In this document: positions 1 through 12,146 of the stretch, piece by piece
Layout: each line of letters begins with the position of its first letter
Position numbering within the stretch: the first letter of the stretch is position 1
Position numbers and translations under genes: made by a program
Notes under the pieces: model-generated
Databases searched by the model: none
The model's input: the letters and a program-made list of their open reading frames with translations, nothing else
What the model was told of the DNA's origin: nothing
IMG/VR virus record: IMGVR_UViG_2675903609_000002
Coordinates: 1 to 15,393 of that record
Length of the DNA stretch: 15,393 nt
Strand: one strand, 5' to 3'
Source of the DNA: a virus
Taxonomy: Duplodnaviria > Heunggongvirae > Uroviricota > Caudoviricetes

Positions 1-93
1 CCGCATAGTGCGCTGGGTTATCGCTCGCCACGGGAATATCTGCGGCAGCGGGCTTGTAATAGGTTAAGTGATAACAGATGTCTGGAAATATAG
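1..93 (+). CDS. insD: IS2 transposase OrfB (InsD), C-terminal 30 codons only; 5' part outside window
   Basis: Frame 1 translates to [30 protein letters not shown], stop TAG at 91-93, which is the InsD C-terminus from memory. Confidence 0.8.
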
Positions 94-104
94 GGGCAAA
101 TCCA
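1..104 (+). mobile_element. IS2, right-end fragment (element continues beyond the window start); terminus at 104
   Basis: Bases 1-104 match the 3' end of IS2 as I remember it, ending in the terminal repeat ...GTGATAACAGATGTCTGGAAATATAGGGGCAAATCCA. The sequence after 104 is unrelated usher coding sequence. Confidence 0.85.
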
Positions 105-1829
105 CCAGCGTTCTAACGGAATACTGAGATTCAAAGAGAGTGCACGGTCATTATTTTCATCAGTGTAGCGGCTGTATTGATAATTCAGGCTGTAACCAAT
201 TCCCCATTGCTGGCCGGAAACCCCAACAGAGATATTACTGTTTTTCTCGTTATTGCCCCAATAGTCTTGCTGTGAACCGGAGGCATACAGACTTACCCCA
301 TCAAATATTGTCTGGCTGATGTTGAATTGAATTTCACTTTTTTGGCGACTGTTATAGCCCCAATTGCGGGTATTGGCTTCATCAAAACTAAAATAGCCAT
401 CGTTGGTATAGCGATAGTAGCTAACAGCGATATTGGTGTTGGTTTCCGGGATATCTTTGATGTACTGAGTACGCCATTGATAGCCATGAAAAGAGTGCTG
501 GTTATCGAATTGGGTGTCAGCTCTGTTGATATCCATCGACAACGCGCCCAGTGCGCCAAGTGTGCCGCCGATACCGATCCCCAGCGCATAATAATCTTCA
601 GAACCGAGCAGGCCGCCATACAGCGTAAAAGTATTATTCAAACCATATATTGCCGTGGCTTCAGCAAATTCGGGTTCCTTGCTATCACTGTTTGCATCAG
701 CGCGATAGCGTCCAGCGGTCGCGCTATATTTTAGATGCCCAGGTCGCTGCATCATGGGTAATGAAGAATAAGGCTGGATAAAGCGACGTTGTGTACCGTC
801 ACTTTCTTCAATCGTGACTTCTAAATCGCCGCTGTTGGAAGAGGGGTAGAGATCGTTAATTTCAAAGGCACCCGCTGGCACGTTGCTTTGATAGATCACA
901 TAACCATTTTGCCTGATAGTCACGATTGCACTACTGTTTGCGATACCGCGTACCGTTGGGGCAAATCCGCGCTGGCTGTTTGGCAACATATTATCGTCGG
1001 AAGCGAGTTGCACGCCAGTAAAGGCGTAGCTGGAAAAAATACTGCCGCTGGTGGCGCTTTCTCCCAGAAGCAACTGAGACTTCAACGCCTTGATATCACG
1101 TTGTAAATAACTACTGATAGTGTTCCAGCTTGACGCCTGATCGTTGCGTGTCCACGTAGAATAGTTACGTAATCGCCAGGGGCCAAAATTAGCACCATTT
1201 TGCATATTCAGGTACTGTCGTTGGCTACGATTGCCCTGGCGGTAACGGTTATCAGAACCTGTAAACGAGTAGTTGGTAAACAGCGTTGGTATACCATCGT
1301 CCCAACGAGAAGGGGAGACGTAACCTCTTGCATCACGGTACAGTGCAATTTGGGGAATGCTCAAATTAAGTCGCTGATGATTGAAATCAAATTCAGCAGC
1401 TGTACCGGGAATGATTTGTTCAAGCGAGTTGATCACGCTATCGTCATCTTTTTCAGCCAGCGCCGGGATTTCATCCACCTTAATACCCAGCTCACGTAGT
1501 TGTTCTACCGTAAACTGTGGCTGCAGAAGTTGCTCTGCATTGGCGGTAAATGTAATTTTTTTCTGTGAAACCTTCTTTTTATTCAGCCAGATATCAACCT
1601 GATAAGTTCCTGGTAGTTGTGCGTATTTTTTTGAAAAACGTGACAGATCGGTTGTTTGCATACCACTTTTTGTAGTTTCCAGCATAATGGGGTCGAAATA
1701 ATACTCTTCGGCGTTAGCGGTAGTGCAAAGCATGCCGCTGCCAGTGAGCACCATCGGCAAACAACGTTTGATAATGAGCGCCAACTGTTTCGGTGTGCGT
1801 TTATGTCCCTGGTGGTGTCGTTGTGGCAT
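105..1829 (-). pseudogene. Fimbrial outer-membrane usher (PapC/FimD family), interrupted by IS2; N-terminal ~575 codons present
   Basis: Minus-strand ORF with signal peptide and usher N-terminal motif (MPQRHH...MVLTGSGMLCTTANAEEYYFDPIMLE...). The frame runs without a stop into the IS2 end at 104, so track ORF 18..1898 is a read-through artefact. Start taken at ATG 1829, 28 nt after the chaperone stop. Confidence 0.8.
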
Positions 1830-1857
1830 TCCCTGATGGCCTGTGTTTTTATATTTT

Positions 1858-2493
1858 TTATTGCAGTGGACGAGTTTCTGTCCCGGAACTGCCGCCATAA
1901 TCGTTGATCGCAGCCCATTTCACGTTCTTTCCGCCAGATGCTGGAAGTGGTAACTGTTTATGTTCTCCGGGCGCGATATATTCAATTTTGCTTGTGAGAT
2001 CGGTTTTATCGACTGCCAGTCCGGCAAATACGACGTAATATTCAGTTGGGTTATATATATTGAGTGAATGGTCACTACGTTTAAATTCCAGTGATTTCCA
2101 CGCATCGTTTACCCGTCCCTTCAGGTGTGCGGGGCGATAAAACATTTTGACCCGCGTTTTAAATACCAGCGTCAACTCGTTAGCATTAACATCATCTGAT
2201 TTTTTCTTTGCTGGAATGGCACGAACATTAATGTAGAACAGCGACTCTTTATTTTCAGGCAGGTTATCAGCTGTTTTAATAATTCGCAGTGATGAGTCAT
2301 CGCCAGCCTCAAGACGAAATAGCGGTGGGGTTATAATAAATGGGGCACGGCTTTTACCATCTATATTATCTACCCATGATTGCAGTAAATAAGGCGTTTC
2401 TGCGCCTTTGTTTGCGACAGGTAACGCAGCCTCTTTGCGGCTGGCATCATAGATCACTCGCGTTCGCTGTAAAACGATACCCCCTGCAGACAT
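1858..2493 (-). pseudogene. Fimbrial periplasmic chaperone (PapD/FimC family), 5'-truncated with no signal peptide
   Basis: Translation has chaperone hallmarks ([14 protein letters not shown]..., ...YLLQSWVDN...[13 protein letters not shown]...). The ORF begins at the mature-protein position, with an in-frame TAG (2494-2496) directly upstream and no signal peptide in any frame. Confidence 0.7.
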
Positions 2494-2562
2494 CTACTTG
2501 AAGCGGCAGGGGATTGATTGGAATGGTGTTTTTTAGATGTGAGAAATATTTTACCCGCTATT

Positions 2563-2763
2563 TTACCCATTGGCGCGGCTTAAGAGCTTATTTTTGAATT
2601 CACAATGGTCACGATATAACCATCTTGCTCGACCGTGGATAACTTTGGCTTTAGGCAGGTCGCCGGACTTAATCCGGTCGTAGATGAAGGTTTTACCAAA
2701 GCCAGTATCAGCCATGATGAATTTCAAATCAACCAGTGAATCAGGTTGTAGTTCGTGTTGCAT
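2563..2763 (-). CDS. AlpA/excisionase-family small DNA-binding protein (Xis-like), 66 aa
   Basis: SD GGAG 9 nt upstream of ATG 2763. Sequence ...DLKFIMADTGFGKTFIYDRIKSGDLPKAKVIHGRARW... resembles phage AlpA/Xis HTH proteins. It is the last gene of the leftward operon, where lambdoid xis sits. Confidence 0.55.
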   Translation of the reverse strand: MQHELQPDSLVDLKFIMADTGFGKTFIYDRIKSGDLPKAKVIHGRARWLYRDHCEFKNKLLSRANG

Positions 2764-5733: not shown

Positions 5734-6030
5734 TCAGTCATTACTGATAGCGCCATAGCGTGATCGATAATTACGCAGACGCGGGTCGATATATTCAGGG
5801 AAGTGGGTATATGTGGCTTTGCGGAATGGTCGGATTGATGTCTGGTAAATTCGCTCGCGTTCTTCTTTCTCTGCAAGCCATATACAGTGGCGAAATTCCT
5901 TTTCCTCTTTCGTTTCCTGCGGTAGCGACATTATCCGATCGTAGTTTTTTCTGAATTTATCCAGCACCTCCGATACGGAATTGCCGGAACAGCGGCGCGG
6001 GTCATCCGCACCATACAGAGGCGCTGGCAT
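5734..6030 (-). CDS. Hypothetical phage protein, 98 aa
   Basis: SD AGGAGA 5 nt upstream of ATG 6030, 14 nt after the exonuclease stop. Confidence 0.55.
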
Positions 6031-6046
6031 GTTTTTCTCCTGTTGA

Positions 6047-6595
6047 TTATTTAGCTAACTTTTTCCAGATCGCTGAAACGTATTTGGCTTGGTGAATGGC
6101 ATCATCAAGAGCGTTGTGGCGAGTTCCTTTGAATGGCATATCTCGCTTAGGGTCGAATCCTATTGCCTTCCCAAGTTCGACGATTGTTCTTACGTCGCGG
6201 TCATTCCACCACTGCCACGGAACTGGCTGCCCTGTCAGCGAATAACTGTTGCGGAGAATAACGCAGTCAAATGATGCTCCATTCCCCCAAACCTGAACGA
6301 ATTTGTGGTTAGCGTTCTTTATGATGAATTCAGATAACCATGAAAGAGCCGTTGAAAGCTCCTGAGTGTTGCTGGTTAGCGATTTCCTGGCTTCTTCACT
6401 CTGTTCCAGCCACCATAAAATCGTTGAAGCGTCAGGACGCGCTCGATATCGCATTGATGATTCAAGCGAGATATTTACCGAGAACTCTTCTCCTGTTTCT
6501 CCGGTATTCGGGTCAAAGAATACCGCCCCAATAGAAATAACTGGCGCGTATGGCCCGTTGCCCATTGTTTCAAGGTCAACCATCAAGTGATTCAT
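6047..6595 (-). CDS. DnaQ-like (DEDD) 3'-5' exonuclease, 182 aa
   Basis: Exo motifs MVDLETMG (I), WGNGASFD (II) and HNALDDAIHQA (III). SD AAGGA upstream. Confidence 0.8.
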   Translation of the reverse strand: MNHLMVDLETMGNGPYAPVISIGAVFFDPNTGETGEEFSVNISLESSMRYRARPDASTILWWLEQSEEARKSLTSNTQELSTALSWLSEFIIKNANHKFVQVWGNGASFDCVILRNSYSLTGQPVPWQWWNDRDVRTIVELGKAIGFDPKRDMPFKGTRHNALDDAIHQAKYVSAIWKKLAK

Positions 6596-6603
6596 GTAAG
6601 TCC

Positions 6604-7119
6604 TTAAATTGCGTGAATAGCGTGACGAGGGAAGGGGAGAGTTACTGGTGCAAAGGGGATATCGTCGTCAAAATCCATAGGTGGTTCGCTGTGATTTCCC
6701 TGCTGCTGAGGTTGCTGTCTTTGTTGCTGACCATTATTTCGCTGAGGTGAAGACTGTTCATTGCCTCCTTGCTTGCCACCAAGCATTTGCATGGTTCCAC
6801 CAACGCCCACGATGACTTCGGTAGTGAACCGATCCTGTCCGCTTTGATCCTGCCATTTTCTTGTCCGCAATTTGCCTTCAAGATAAACCTCAGAGCCTTT
6901 TCGCAGATATTCGCTGGCAATTTCTGCCAGTTTCCCGCTCATTACCACGCGGTGCCACTCCGTCTGCTCCTTTTGCTCTCCAGTTTTCTTATCACGCCAT
7001 TGTTCTGACGTAGCAACGGTAAGGTTTGCAAATGCCGTTCCTGATGGTGAATATCTGATTTCTGGATCATGCCCAAGGCGACCAATAATGATCACCTTAT
7101 TTACGCCTCTGCTTGCCAT
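6604..7119 (-). CDS. ssb: Single-stranded DNA-binding protein (SSB), 171 aa, with a 15-aa extension after the DDDIPF tip
   Basis: [16 protein letters not shown]... OB fold, Gly/Gln-rich linker, then ...[11 protein letters not shown] followed by [15 protein letters not shown] before the stop. Confidence 0.9.
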
Positions 7120-7827
7120 TTATGCCGCCTGTTTTAGTTCGTTAACTCTGATGTTCATTACCTGAACGCATTTAGCCTGCGCCTCCTCGTTGCCAGCCAT
7201 TAATTGCCAGTCACGCTGATAACGCTCGATGAGTTTTTTCTTGTCAGTTTCTGTTGACGCATAATCGCTGAAGTCTTTCAGGATTTGTTCGCAGTCAACC
7301 GATGGAGATTTCTGGTTGGTATTTTCTGGTGATGGTTTGTTATCTGATGCTGGGATTGCCCATCCCGGCAGCGATGGAGGGAGCCAGTAAAATCCTGTTC
7401 CATCCTTGAGTTTTGCCCTGTGCCATCCCTGCTTTTTATCGAGAGATGTTTGTGCAAAACCTTCCTCAAGGTTATACAGATACCGACCGATCCCCCACTG
7501 AACGGCAGCGCGCTTCATTGCACCGGAACGACCACCTTTGACGGCTTCTACCTGCGTGTTTTCAGCAGCATCCCATTTGGTTACCCATTCGGAATCAATC
7601 CTGATTGATATGCCGCATTCAACGCCTCCGTTGTTGGGAATATCGCGGTATTCATTGCGCCATCCTGCTTTGCCGCAAACATCGTCCAGGCGTTTCATGA
7701 TTGCCCGGTTCGTGACATAAGCCAGCACCATAGCCCACACTTTGCCATCGCGTGTTTTACCGCTTTGCTGTATTCGCCATTCGATATCTTCAGGGCTGAA
7801 TGGCTTATCGAATTTATTCAAATCCAT
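7120..7827 (-). CDS. Rad52/Rad22-family single-strand annealing protein (Sak-like), 235 aa
   Basis: ...AYVTNRAIMKRLDDVCGKAGWRNEY...GGVECGISIRI... fits the Rad52 N-domain pattern. Directly upstream of ssb (stop abuts the ssb ATG); SD GAGGTGA upstream. Confidence 0.65.
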   Translation of the reverse strand: MDLNKFDKPFSPEDIEWRIQQSGKTRDGKVWAMVLAYVTNRAIMKRLDDVCGKAGWRNEYRDIPNNGGVECGISIRIDSEWVTKWDAAENTQVEAVKGGRSGAMKRAAVQWGIGRYLYNLEEGFAQTSLDKKQGWHRAKLKDGTGFYWLPPSLPGWAIPASDNKPSPENTNQKSPSVDCEQILKDFSDYASTETDKKKLIERYQRDWQLMAGNEEAQAKCVQVMNIRVNELKQAA

Positions 7828-7926
7828 AATTCACCTCAGAATGGACATGGCCCAAGGAAATAACGCTGGTTTAATACTTCGACTCTGGACAAATTAAGGC
7901 ATACCCGCATTCCTTCGCGGTCACCA

Positions 7927-8085
7927 TTATGGCGATACCAGAGAGCTTTCTGCGTGTACATGCGTCTCTGTAACTTGCTCTCCTTCACTGTGGTTGCAAG
8001 TGACATGAATATCTCCTTCGTTACCGATTAATTCTTTCATATGACGAATGAATTCTTCGTCTGACCAGTTATCTGTAAAACTCAT
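7927..8085 (-). CDS. Hypothetical small protein, 52 aa
   Basis: ATG 8085 overlaps the Kil-like stop as ATGA. No SD of its own; an internal ATG at 8040 is an alternative start. Confidence 0.3.
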   Translation of the reverse strand: MSFTDNWSDEEFIRHMKELIGNEGDIHVTCNHSEGEQVTETHVHAESSLVSP

Positions 8086-8234
8086 TTCCTGCGACACCAC
8101 GGAAGGTTGATAGCTGATTTCATCGCTTTATTTGCTTCAAGCCACATTTTTGAATCACCAATAAATCTGGCTATTACTGCTTTGTTCTGTGCAGCACGAA
8201 GCATCTGATGATTTATGGCTATTTCATTGCGCAT
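8082..8234 (-). CDS. Kil-like small protein, 50 aa (not in ORF track, under 60 aa)
   Basis: MRNEIAINHQMLRAAQNKAVIARFIGDSKMWLEANKAMKS... resembles the ...FIGDEKM... core of lambda Kil / Rac KilR from memory. Lies immediately downstream of cIII as in lambda. Confidence 0.5.
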   Translation of the reverse strand: MRNEIAINHQMLRAAQNKAVIARFIGDSKMWLEANKAMKSAINLPWCRRK

Positions 8235-8350
8235 AATAAGACCTCAACTCTTTTCCATCCGTCACGTAATTTACGGGTGATTCGTTCAAGTAAAGATTCA
8301 TTTAGTTGGAAGGCACCCATGCGAGCGCCTCCCGCGATTGCGTAAATCAT
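8219..8350 (-). CDS. cIII: cIII-like protease inhibitor, 43 aa (not in ORF track)
   Basis: MIYAIAGGARMGAFQLNESLLERITRKLRDGWKRVEVLLCAMK. The core ESLLERITRKLRDGWKR matches lambda cIII as I recall it. SD AAGGA 7 nt upstream. Confidence 0.8.
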   Translation of the reverse strand: MIYAIAGGARMGAFQLNESLLERITRKLRDGWKRVEVLLCAMK

Positions 8351-8374
8351 GGGTGGTTCCTTATGTTGGTTTTA

Positions 8375-9343
8375 TTAGTAGGTTATTTTTGTTGCGAATA
8401 CTTCGCCTTTTACGATGGCTGTTATGATATTTTTAGCAACATCTTCTGATGCACCAACCTTGATAAGGTCAGCAAGTATTTTGTTATTTACTTCTTTCCG
8501 GTGAGCTTTATCCTTTGCTCTACGCTCTTCTTCTTCCTTGATTCTTTTTTCTTCTGCTATTCTGGCTTGCTCTTTTGCTTCAGCATCGCGACGGATTCGT
8601 TCAGCCTCCTCCTGTGCTTTTCTGCGTTCTGCTTCAATTGCTGCCTGCTTTTCTCTTTCAGCTCGTTCTGCTGCCTCTTTTGCTTCGCGCTGTGCTCGCT
8701 GCTCGGCTTCAATGCGTTCACGCTCTGCACGTTCCGCTGCGGCCTTAGCTTCTGCTTCTCGCCTTGCTGCTGCTTCAATTTCGGCTTTTGCCTTTGCTTC
8801 GGCTTCTGCTCTGGCTTTCTCTTCAGCTTCTCTTTTTAAGCGTTCTTCATGCTCTCGCTTTTCCTGCTCCGCTTTGAGTCTTGCCTCTTCTCTTTGGCGG
8901 TCAAATTCGCGATCCATCAAAATAGCTATTTCATGGTCAGACTCAATTTGCTTTGCGAGAGCTTCAGCTGCTGCCTTAGCTTCTTCTTCGGCTTTAATCC
9001 GCGCCTGTTCTTCCTCATAATCAGTAAGAGGCTGGCGCGCCTTGGCTTTCAGTTCATCAAGGCGATCGCGCACTGTCTTGCGGTTAGCATCAATTAGCTT
9101 TGGAATTTCCTTCAGTTCAGCAACAAGGTCTTTGCCAAGACCATCGAGATATGTTTTCGTCTGCGCAACTTTATACGCCAGAGAAGCGATCTCCTTTCTG
9201 CCCTTTGCCGTTGTGATATCAGGCACAAAGGACATAACTTCACGTTCAACCTTTTGAAGGATTTCTTCAATCTGGTCGGCAGACTGAAATACAGTCATTG
9301 CATTTGCTTTTTCAATAACAACTAAATCTGTTACTTCACTCAT
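8375..9343 (-). CDS. Hypothetical early protein, 322 aa: N-terminal ~120-aa domain, ~170-aa Ala/Glu/Lys/Arg-rich coiled-coil region, short C-terminal domain
   Basis: SD GGAGGA 5 nt upstream of ATG 9343. Long ORF in operon orientation. The central region is low-complexity at DNA level. Confidence 0.7.
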   Translation of the reverse strand: MSEVTDLVVIEKANAMTVFQSADQIEEILQKVEREVMSFVPDITTAKGRKEIASLAYKVAQTKTYLDGLGKDLVAELKEIPKLIDANRKTVRDRLDELKAKARQPLTDYEEEQARIKAEEEAKAAAEALAKQIESDHEIAILMDREFDRQREEARLKAEQEKREHEERLKREAEEKARAEAEAKAKAEIEAAARREAEAKAAAERAERERIEAEQRAQREAKEAAERAEREKQAAIEAERRKAQEEAERIRRDAEAKEQARIAEEKRIKEEEERRAKDKAHRKEVNNKILADLIKVGASEDVAKNIITAIVKGEVFATKITY

Positions 9344-9355
9344 ATATCCTCCGTC

Positions 9356-9384
9356 AAAAAAATTGCCCTCACACTGGAGGGCAA
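9356..9384 (-). terminator. Intrinsic terminator immediately upstream of the 322-aa gene
   Basis: Minus-strand RNA UUGCCCUC-CAGUGU-GAGGGCAA followed by U7; the gene's SD starts 5 nt later. Confidence 0.6.
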
Positions 9385-9500
9385 AGAAGATTTCCAATAA
9401 TCAGAACAAGTCGGCTCCTGTTTAGTTACGAGCGACATTGCTCCGTGTATTCACTCGTTGGAATGAATACACAGTGCAGTGTTTATTCTGTTGTTTATGC

Positions 9501-9528
9501 CAAAAATAAAGGCCACCGTCAGGCAGCC
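9501..9528 (-). terminator. Intrinsic terminator candidate overlapping the ral stop codon
   Basis: Minus-strand RNA GGCUGCC-UGAC-GGUGGCC (two G.U pairs) followed by UUUAUUUUU. Confidence 0.45.
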
Positions 9529-9719
9529 TTGTTGTTCAGTTTACCAAGTTCTCTGGCAATCATTGCCGTCGTTCGTATTGCCCATTTATCGACATATTTC
9601 CCATCTTCCATTACAGGAAACATTTCTTCAGGCTTAACCATGCATTCCGATTGCAGCTTGCATCCATTGCATCGCTTGAATTGTCCACACCATTGATTTT
9701 TATCAATGGTCGTAGTCAT
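9519..9719 (-). CDS. ral: Ral restriction-alleviation protein, 66 aa
   Basis: MTTTIDKNQWCGQFKRCNGCKLQSECMVKPEEMFPVMEDGKYVDKWAIRTTAMIARELGK... matches lambda Ral almost residue-for-residue from memory. Confidence 0.9.
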   Translation of the reverse strand: MTTTIDKNQWCGQFKRCNGCKLQSECMVKPEEMFPVMEDGKYVDKWAIRTTAMIARELGKLNNKAA

Positions 9720-9789
9720 ACGGATAGTCCTGGTATTGTTCCATCACATCCTGAGGATGCTCTTCGAACTCTTCAAATTCTTCTTCCAT
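9703..9789 (-). CDS. Small acidic ORF, 28 aa, between N and ral
   Basis: ATG 9789 with SD GGTG 4 nt upstream. Translation MEEEFEEFEEHPQDVMEQYQDYPYDYDH; overlaps the ral start by 16 nt. Confidence 0.35.
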   Translation of the reverse strand: MEEEFEEFEEHPQDVMEQYQDYPYDYDH

Positions 9790-9797
9790 ATATCACC

Positions 9798-10124
9798 TCA
9801 AATAAGTGGTTTGCTGCCTAATTTCATTTTCTGGCGACCAACACAAGTCACACCCATTTCACTGCGTGGCTTGCTGTACCATGTGCGCTGATTCTTGCGC
9901 TCAATACGCTGCAGGTTGCTTTCAATCTGTTCGTGGTATTCAGCCAGCACCGTAAGGTCTATCGGATTCAGTGCGCTTTCTACTCGTGATTTCGGTTTGC
10001 GATTCAGCGAGAGAATAGGGCGGTTAACTGGTTTTGCGCTTACCCCAACCAACAGGGGATTTGCTGCTTTCCATTGAGCCTGTTTCTCTGCGCGACGTTC
10101 GCGGCGGCGTGTTTGAGAGTCCAT
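9798..10124 (-). CDS. N: Antitermination protein N, 108 aa
   Basis: MDSQTRRRERRAEKQAQWKAANPLLVGVSAKPVNRPILSLNRKPKSRVESALNPIDLTVLAEYH... is near-identical to lambda N (Arg-rich motif intact), differing mainly in the C-terminal ~20 aa. Confidence 0.95.
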   Translation of the reverse strand: MDSQTRRRERRAEKQAQWKAANPLLVGVSAKPVNRPILSLNRKPKSRVESALNPIDLTVLAEYHEQIESNLQRIERKNQRTWYSKPRSEMGVTCVGRQKMKLGSKPLI

Positions 10125-10165
10125 ATATCATCCTCAGATAAATGGCCCCTCAGCGGGGCCGACAG

Positions 10166-10294
10166 TTATTGGCAGGTTGCGTACTTGCTGATGCAGGAGA
10201 AGATTTCCACGATTCGCGTCATTGTTGTTTCAGGACGCTTTGCTTCATCACGCATTGACTTCAACCAAGCCATAAAGTGTTCGTTATGTTTCAT
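10166..10294 (-). CDS. Small ORF, 42 aa, inserted between the N leader and N (not in ORF track)
   Basis: ACAGGAG-ATGAAC-ATG: it uses the SD that precedes N directly in lambda. Translation MKHNEHFMAWLKSMRDEAKRPETTMTRIVEIFSCISKYATCQ. A GGCCCC-GCUGA-GGGGCC hairpin (10144-10160) follows. Confidence 0.35.
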   Translation of the reverse strand: MKHNEHFMAWLKSMRDEAKRPETTMTRIVEIFSCISKYATCQ

Positions 10295-10561
10295 GTTCAT
10301 CTCCTGTCAGTTAGCTTTGGTGGTGTGGTGGCTGGTAGTCTAGCTCCAGCTTGTTGAGTCTCATTCGGAGGGGTATAACCGGCACCCCAGCGATTTTTCC
10401 ATGCGACAACGTGCGCGTTATGGCGGCCTTATCGCCCGCGGCTCCCCATCTCGTCCACGCTATTGCTAGCGTTGGGAGCGCTTCACCGCTCAACAGTAGG
10501 TAAGCACTTGCCAGTGACTAGCTGGCTTCACCACACCCCAAAGCCTTCTGCTTTGAATGCT

Positions 10562-10592
10562 GCCCTTCTTCAGGGCTTAATTTTTAAGAGCC
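10562..10592 (-). promoter_or_regulatory. nutL (boxA-like + boxB hairpin)
   Basis: Minus strand reads GGCTCTTAAAAATTAA-GCCCTGAAGAAGGGC. The boxB hairpin matches lambda nutL as I recall it; boxA has G where lambda has C at its first position. Confidence 0.8.
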
Positions 10593-10753: not shown

Positions 10754-12106
<1,353 letters not shown>

Positions 12107-12114
12107 GACATTCC

Positions 12115-12146
12115 CGCTCTTACACATCCCAGCCCTGAAAAAGGGC
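12115..12146 (+). promoter_or_regulatory. nutR (boxA CGCTCTTACACA + boxB GCCCTGAAAAAGGGC)
   Basis: Matches lambda nutR boxA/boxB from memory; sits just after the cro stop. Confidence 0.8.

Follow-up and report, generated by a model that had tools for sequence, protein, structure and literature searches.

A widespread uncharacterised phage protein encoded beside recombination genes: its occurrence in a lambdoid prophage, its architecture and a possible accessory role

Recombineering is built on the annealing-protein modules of phages, which are also a main driver of phage mosaicism. The accepted list of their parts consists of an annealing protein, a nuclease, a single-stranded DNA-binding protein (SSB) and an anti-RecBCD protein, and a 2025 survey of 325 lambdoid Rec modules describes them in these same terms (PMC12315714). 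In phages of Firmicutes, a Mu-Gam homologue, DUF2483, DUF1351 or Gp157 is found upstream of erf or sak4, and the authors of that work inferred analogous functions from the shared position (PMC8093625). Here we describe a gene from the 15,393-nt stretch of IMG/VR record IMGVR_UViG_2675903609_000002, which we call the window and which covers the early region of a lambdoid prophage with its leftward operon on the minus strand. The gene encodes a protein of 322 amino acids (aa), and the DUF1351, Gp157, DUF2483 and Mu-Gam-like genes upstream of erf, sak4 or recT in Firmicutes phages stand in the same position relative to the annealing protein as the family to which this protein belongs.

The 322-aa gene, its family and its neighbours

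The program-made list of open reading frames (ORFs) gives the frame as 8375-9397 on the minus strand, 340 aa from a TTG start; this TTG falls within the second of two hairpins that precede the gene (hairpin 2 below). An ATG at 9343-9341 follows a GGAGG Shine-Dalgarno sequence at 9352-9348, 4 nt upstream, and opens a frame that ends at the TAA stop 8377-8375. Because of this GGAGG, and because the same MSE... opens the homologues from phages of Klebsiella, Vibrio and Pseudomonas, we take the 322 aa read from the ATG as the real product, in agreement with the length given in a first-pass annotation of this DNA. That annotation had also placed the frame behind two hairpins and between ral and cIII; both hairpins are present in the sequence, and the PHROG assignments of the flanking genes agree with the position. 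The features of the gene itself are as follows.

8375..9343, minus strand: coding sequence of the 322-aa protein (PHROG 1376, function unassigned)
9348..9352, minus strand: Shine-Dalgarno sequence GGAGG of the 322-aa gene
8999..9343, minus strand: N-terminal conserved domain, aa 1-115, a three-helix unit
8513..8998, minus strand: helical spacer rich in E/K/R/A, aa 116-277, its length variable across the family
8378..8512, minus strand: C-terminal conserved domain, aa 278-322

The protein matches the PHROG 1376 profile over its full length (residues 1-322, E = 8.4e-110), and this is its sole family assignment. The first-pass annotation had called the gene unassignable, and the searches lead to the same result, as Pfam, NCBIfam, PADLOC and the PDB gave no characterised family. 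Pfam returned low-complexity matches or sub-threshold noise for the whole protein, for its N and C parts, for 101 family representatives and for 89 C-domains; NCBIfam and PADLOC had no match to the 322-aa protein; and in the PDB neither sequence searches with the protein and with its N- and C-domain profiles nor fold comparison gave anything significant for either end. The literature yielded no characterised member of the family, and the exact 322-aa protein was not found in a collection of 15 billion proteins. The gene shows no more than weak tandem repetition at the DNA level (a 6-nt unit in at most 14 copies, 63% match), which rules out a repeat array.

An exhaustive profile search of the family reached 5,695 clusters (50% identity) at E <= 1e-3 and 5,138 at the stricter limit of E <= 1e-10; among the best matches listed, most are 300-400 aa long and have the domain at the N terminus. 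The gene occurs in 530 of 5,426 complete E. coli genomes (~10%). It is almost absent from plasmids, with 26 positive records among 72,556, nearly all of them phage-sized. The family is an uncharacterised but very widespread phage protein.

The neighbours of the gene were collected at 63 loci, each from a different GTDB species, spanning Gamma-, Beta- and Alphaproteobacteria and a few metagenome-assembled genomes (MAGs) labelled otherwise; the counts per locus come from iterated home-made hidden Markov models (HMMs) seeded from known proteins and from crude ORF calling. An annealing protein (Erf, Rad52-like, RecT or Sak4) is encoded on the same strand within 2.5 kb at 51 of the 63 loci, and either an annealing protein, an exonuclease or an SSB at 56 of them; at 29 the neighbour lies within 100 nt. 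When the next two ORFs were searched against Pfam at 60 loci (120 ORFs), the matches were YqaJ (19), ERF (18), SSB (8), DUF3799 (8), RecT (6), AAA_24 (3) and Rad52 (3), and the nearest upstream ORF matched RecT at 5 loci. Within Pseudomonas and Burkholderiales the genes most often follow each other as family-erf-exo-ssb, 8-11 nt apart, so that the gene stands where lambda has gam.

Individual phages give a similar picture. The homologue lies directly before erf and an exonuclease gene in Pseudomonas phage JBD44, directly before gamL-bet-exo in a Klebsiella phage, and two genes after an ATPase gene in Vibrio phage Seahorse; at two of the loci, L118 and L128, the family gene is found between erf and the exonuclease gene. 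The order is reversed at six loci of Aeromonas prophages (L104-L108 and L111): a RecT-family gene precedes the family gene, its end 22-63 nt away in all but L104, where the distance is 715 nt, and an ORF of ~400 aa or ~190 aa follows. Among 80 E. coli-type loci, alleles that are at least 97% identical in the N domain are accompanied by Erf-type (38), Rad52-like (29) or Sak4 (3) annealing proteins.

One of the MAG loci is a 3.9-kb contig labelled Actinomycetes (L090, JAFADF010000066.1), in which the N domain is 100% identical to an E. coli phage allele and the family gene is followed by a Rad52-type annealing protein; this contig is probably enterobacterial phage contamination of the MAG.

In the window, the recombination module belongs to the same operon as the 322-aa gene and lies downstream of it.

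8219..8350, minus strand: cIII-like gene, directly downstream of the 322-aa gene (PHROG)
8082..8234, minus strand: kil (PHROG)
5734..8100, minus strand: recombination module, same operon (PHROG, Pfam)
7836-8100, minus strand: two small Arf-like ORFs
7120-7827, minus strand: Rad52/Erf-type annealing protein (PHROG)
6604-7119, minus strand: SSB (PHROG)
6047-6595, minus strand: DnaQ-like exonuclease (PHROG)
5734-6030, minus strand: anti-RecBCD protein Abc2 (PHROG)

Based on the conservation of these neighbours, we suggest that the 322-aa protein most likely serves the phage recombination module as an accessory or adaptor without enzymatic activity, a reading to which we assign a probability of roughly 55%. 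With ~5,700 clusters, no Pfam model, four unrelated kinds of recombinase as neighbours, a spread over at least three classes of Proteobacteria and its share of complete E. coli genomes, the family is a strong candidate for a missing part of the module.

Several points speak against such a role. The protein resembles no recombination protein in either sequence or fold, and in the window and its close relatives cIII, kil and the two small ORFs separate its gene from that of the annealing protein. The gene is situated at a mosaic junction, in a slot that lambda uses for the unrelated ea10, and the survey of lambdoid modules discusses other candidate members, the 322-aa family not being among them (PMC12315714). 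Synteny is moreover a matter of association and not of function, and the neighbour counts, resting on crude ORF calls and home-made HMMs, have no matched control gene that would give the background rate.

The position of the gene also lends itself to a different explanation, in line with the exclusion or host-takeover role that the first-pass annotation had suggested: it could serve host takeover, exclusion or counter-defence and be no more than a passenger in the variable part of the early left operon. The ea10 slot is beside ral, cIII and kil, three genes directed at host functions; the gene has a known mosaic boundary sequence at its flank, and presence in only ~10% of complete E. coli genomes is typical of accessory genes. 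In the 80 close relatives cIII and kil are retained downstream (the cIII-like gene is linked to the 322-aa gene in 78 of the 80), and the upstream side is variable, ral being present in ~14. Yet the adjacency to four recombinase families is conserved from Alpha- to Gammaproteobacteria, even inside the module itself, which would be unexpected for a free-floating moron; PADLOC, as said, has no match, and no membrane segment or signal peptide can be read from the protein sequence. The exclusion or host-takeover role is not supported; the conserved synteny points to the recombination module instead, and we regard a passenger gene of this kind as unlikely.

If the protein is indeed part of the module, it might more specifically be a functional analogue of Gam that protects linear phage DNA ends or blocks a host nuclease such as RecBCD or SbcCD, leaving the annealing protein and exonuclease free to act. 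The gene is often the first in its module, at the place of lambda gam, in the family-Erf-exo-SSB arrangement with its short gaps; a recognisable Gam, GamL, Abc2 or Mu Gam accompanies it at only 5 of 66 diverse loci, a count from a single-seed search of limited sensitivity; and in Firmicutes phages Mu-Gam-like genes alternate with unassigned genes at the same position (PMC8093625). The E. coli-type loci tell against this sub-case, since Abc2 co-occurs in 70 of the 80, the window included, and the Klebsiella phage has GamL in addition to the homologue. With a net charge of -8 for all 322 aa and of -3 for the N domain, the protein does not qualify as a strongly acidic mimic of DNA. It is also three times larger than lambda Gam, phi80 GamL and P22 Abc2 and has a long single helix, and neither Pfam nor PHROG revealed any similarity to Gam (PF06064), GamL, Abc2 or Mu Gam. 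An anti-nuclease function of the Gam type thus appears quite doubtful to us.

Architecture and distant likenesses of the protein

The AlphaFold2 model of the protein (pLDDT, the predicted local distance difference test score, 81.7) starts with an N-terminal unit formed by helices 12-20, 22-38 and 46-138. An uninterrupted helix follows at 144-295, mostly with pLDDT above 90, which spans 152 residues and ~23 nm, and the C-terminal part consists of a short helix (300-311) and a low-confidence tail. All three parts of the layout that had been proposed earlier are present, namely an N domain, a charged middle and a short C domain. Conservation of the N and C domains extends over Enterobacterales, Vibrio and Pseudomonas; in the 101 representatives the N domain measures 112-129 aa and the C domain a median of 45 aa, with a middle of 144 to 355 aa. 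T45, R49, K63, G70, R88 and P105 are invariant in the N domain, and many basic positions are nearly invariant on its long amphipathic helix. The C-domain consensus is HRxxINxxAxxxLxxxGxxExxAxxxVxxIAxGxIPxVxIxY-COOH, and a terminal Tyr or Phe ends the protein in >90% of members.

The middle segment is composed to 88% of E/K/R/A/Q/D and has large hydrophobic residues at 14 of 152 positions, with 56 i/i+4 pairs of opposite charge in the same 152 residues. Its periodicity power at 3.5 residues is 0.03, below the shuffle mean of 0.08; helix 46-138, by comparison, has a strong amphipathic periodicity, while the middle helix is without any. The coiled coil claimed in the first-pass annotation does not fit these values. 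As heptad periodicity is absent and hydrophobic residues are few, we read the middle, which is predicted to be helical throughout, as a spacer of the single-alpha-helix type with a modelled length of ~23 nm. Domain II of TolA and other E/K/R-rich single alpha-helix spacers share this composition, the dense i/i+4 pattern and the lack of a hydrophobic heptad.

Database records of the family carry names such as 'cell envelope biogenesis protein TolA' and 'colicin import membrane protein', and the first-pass annotation had likewise called the repeats TolA-like. The Ala/Glu/Lys-rich helix does resemble TolA domain II in composition, and TolA-type names are used in many records, so that a TolA-like envelope protein has to be considered. 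The TolA model TIGR02794 nevertheless scores 8.6 bits against a cut-off of 59.45 (E = 0.98), and the Pfam TolA domain was not found in the protein. No hydrophobic segment that could serve as an anchor is seen at the N terminus (read from the sequence, with no transmembrane predictor), the anchor and domain III of TolA are both absent, and neither the conserved N domain nor the conserved C domain is related to its TolA counterpart. The likeness is therefore one of composition, and with a TIGR02794 score so far under its cut-off the database name is a compositional artefact. At the sequence level the TolA reading is already refuted, and we consider an envelope function of this kind extremely improbable. 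A widespread 'TolA' mis-annotation would thereby be corrected.

One of the positional counterparts of the family is DUF1351 (PF07083), whose sequenced member is ~300 aa long, adjoins an annealing-protein gene and has no assigned function, as is the case for the 322-aa family. The Pfam model of DUF1351 was found in 0 of the 101 representatives at E <= 0.1, with phiS13 as positive control at 119.9 bits, and none of the 101 matched the models of Gp157, DUF2483 or the Mu-Gam-like genes either. We also compared the family by hhalign with a profile of 11 phage DUF1351 proteins (a search for further DUF1351 homologues gave only near-identical Oenococcus proteins), and 89 N-terminal columns aligned colinearly with P = 0.022 and a probability of 2%, which is not significant. 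The C-terminal ends differ, with DTxTGE in DUF1351 and GxIPxVxIxY-COOH in the 322-aa family. Homology to DUF1351 is thus no more than a possibility. Sipho_Gp157 (PF05565) had no Pfam match to the protein, and hhalign against Sfi21 orf157 gave a probability of 0.2%.

For the C domain, the most consistent weak matches of the profile were to domain III of RuvA from several species and to UBA domains, all of them sub-threshold. Pfam RuvA_C (PF07499) was found in 3 of 89 members with a best E of 0.012, and the matches in the PDB had E of 0.2-0.4. What is shared with RuvA domain III and UBA is the pattern aLxaxGxxxxeAxxxvxxI. The C domain is predicted to have two helices and not a three-helix bundle, and in place of the third UBA helix it has a Pro-containing, beta-strand-like segment that ends in Tyr or Phe. 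We treat the likeness to RuvA domain III as a lead only.

Returning to the proposed role in recombination, the product would be a cytoplasmic, non-enzymatic and elongated protein, in which a stiff, charged single helix, variable in length, keeps the three-helix N domain and the small C domain at a distance of ~20 nm. As an accessory or adaptor of the phage module for homologous recombination and DNA-end processing, we infer that it would bind a different partner with each of its ends. Since the same allele serves different families of annealing protein, at least one of these partners is probably DNA or a host protein and not the phage annealing protein. Should the protein aid annealing-protein function or protect DNA ends, recombineering could become more efficient in hosts in which lambda Red performs poorly.

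A more far-reaching joint reading, which we put forward very tentatively and hold to be improbable as a whole, is that the recombination modules of proteobacterial phages have a fifth, near-universal component that has gone unrecognised, namely the 322-aa family, and that it acts as a molecular ruler. The N domain may bind DNA or a recombination intermediate, and the C-terminal hairpin, with its weak likeness to RuvA domain III, may act together with the terminal aromatic strand to capture a motor or nuclease of the host, RuvB, RecBCD or SSB partners being examples; the annealing pathway of the phage may thereby be coupled to the host repair machinery or shielded from it. The family may also be the Gram-negative counterpart of DUF1351.

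The upstream spacer, tL2a and expression

In lambda, the ral-ea10 region gives rise to an Hfq-dependent small RNA (sRNA) that was described as LPR1 and renamed PreS (10.1101/2024.10.31.621285). PreS is ~88 nt long and is processed to ~68 nt, its GC-rich hairpin and U-tail are the terminator tL2a, and it raises host DnaN synthesis during the lytic cycle (10.1101/2024.10.31.621285). The corresponding features of the window are listed here.

9500..9530, minus strand: hairpin 1 with T-rich tail, overlapping the ral stop; conserved in lambda and mEp234
9356..9384, minus strand: hairpin 2 with T7, by sequence lambda tL2a, the 3' end of PreS/LPR1
9356..9443, minus strand: putative PreS (LPR1) sRNA homologue, extent approximate, taken as 88 nt back from the U-tract

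Both hairpins were found by a consensus terminator scan. Hairpin 1 (9530-9509) has 9 pairs followed by TATTTTTGG and holds the ral stop codon (9519-9521) within its loop; hairpin 2 (9384-9363) has 8 pairs followed by T7, and its T-run ends at 9356, 3 nt before the Shine-Dalgarno sequence. The folding energy is -13.2 kcal/mol for each, with z-scores of -2.5 and -2.4. The scan found 5 terminator-like sites in 8000-10400, a number that is not above the 3.2 +/- 1.8 expected by chance, and the count alone is thus not significant.

Comparison with related phages is decisive. By alignment, the spacer 9344-9530 is near-identical to the lambda ral-ea10 spacer, both hairpins included, and this places the 322-aa gene in the ea10 slot, in accordance with the lambda neighbourhood named in the first-pass annotation. 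The spacer ahead of the same gene in mEp234 aligns as well, the upstream gene there not being ral, and the spacers of the window, lambda and mEp234 diverge just upstream of hairpin 1 and a few bases past the T-run of hairpin 2. Both hairpins are annotated as rho-independent terminators in the GenBank record of mEp234; in that of Sf6, the hairpin ahead of gene 33 is labelled 'homology to phage lambda; tL2A', and the spacer is boundary sequence bsq4. Taken with the PreS preprint, the near-identity to lambda and these two annotations identify hairpin 2 at the sequence level as lambda tL2a, the 3' end of PreS.

The likeness to lambda tL2a/PreS comprises the near-identical spacer and a GC-rich hairpin followed by a U-tract. 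The window differs from lambda by a few substitutions in hairpin 1 and, where the tL2a stem ends, by one base change and an additional T; the PreS stretch 9356-9443 departs from lambda solely in the U-run and in the final bases of the terminator stem. Downstream, lambda has ea10 and the window has the unrelated 322-aa gene; lambda Ea10 was tested as a relative of the 322-aa protein and was rejected. The RNA between the two hairpins (116 nt) shows an unusual degree of structure (z = -5.9) and includes a perfect 14-bp hairpin at 9443-9474 on the minus strand, just upstream of the presumed 5' end of PreS. Rfam gave no match over the whole window, PreS not being an Rfam family at gathering score. 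The terminators therefore represent biology that is already known (tL2a, PreS and a mosaic boundary sequence); this result is nothing new in itself but locates a PreS sRNA homologue in the prophage.

The idea that the terminators gate this particular gene did not hold up. Their arrangement is that of the conserved lambda ral-ea10 spacer (bsq4), which is annotated in Sf6 and mEp234 and encodes PreS, and close relatives carry the gene behind other upstream genes or ~350 nt after tL2a. The terminators belong to the shared spacer and not to the 322-aa gene. In the IMG/VR contigs L011, L017 and L020-L022 the tL2a spacer ends about 350-420 nt before the gene, with an insertion in between.

How the gene would be expressed can be judged from the following elements.

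9519..9719, minus strand: ral (restriction alleviation), the upstream gene (PHROG)
9798..10124, minus strand: lambda-type antiterminator N (PHROG)
10562..10576, minus strand: nutL boxB, an exact match to lambda GCCCTGAAGAAGGGC
12132-12146, plus strand: nutR boxB, the exact lambda sequence

A site scan found no sigma-70-like site on the minus strand between N and the 322-aa gene, as the first-pass annotation had stated together with its two terminator-like hairpins. Its further proposal that expression depends on N is plausible, given a lambda-type N gene, the exact nutL and nutR boxB sequences and tL2a. With lambda N, nutL and tL2a in place and no intervening promoter-like site, N-dependent read-through into the 322-aa gene may fairly be inferred. 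The gene would then be a delayed-early member of the leftward (PL) operon, and only RNA polymerase modified by N would reach it, after passing both the ral-distal hairpin and the tL2a/PreS terminator.

Other features of the window and of mEp234

A 28-codon ORF lies between N and ral, at the position of lambda orf28. The interval between nutL and N contains extra sequence (10144-10300, minus strand) with a 44-aa ORF at 10166-10300 and a 6-bp all-GC hairpin at 10160-10144 (minus strand), just ahead of the N ribosome-binding site; a leader structure and an inserted small gene are both conceivable here.

A 158-aa ORF at 10754-11230 on the minus strand overlaps the end of the cI-like repressor gene (11155-11787) and lies directly downstream of it. 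Its N-terminal part has a hydrophobic stretch that resembles a signal peptide, its position is that of lambda rexAB, and it may be a moron expressed in the lysogen.

The left end of the window (18-2763, minus strand) holds two fimbrial usher/chaperone-like ORFs (18-1898 and 1858-2493) and a 66-aa ORF (2563-2763, minus strand) that is like an AlpA-type regulator, all judged by eye from the translations. Outside the window, mEp234 (L001/L002) carries at 995-2125, between cI and PL, a hicA-hicB toxin-antitoxin pair together with hicC (2025 record).

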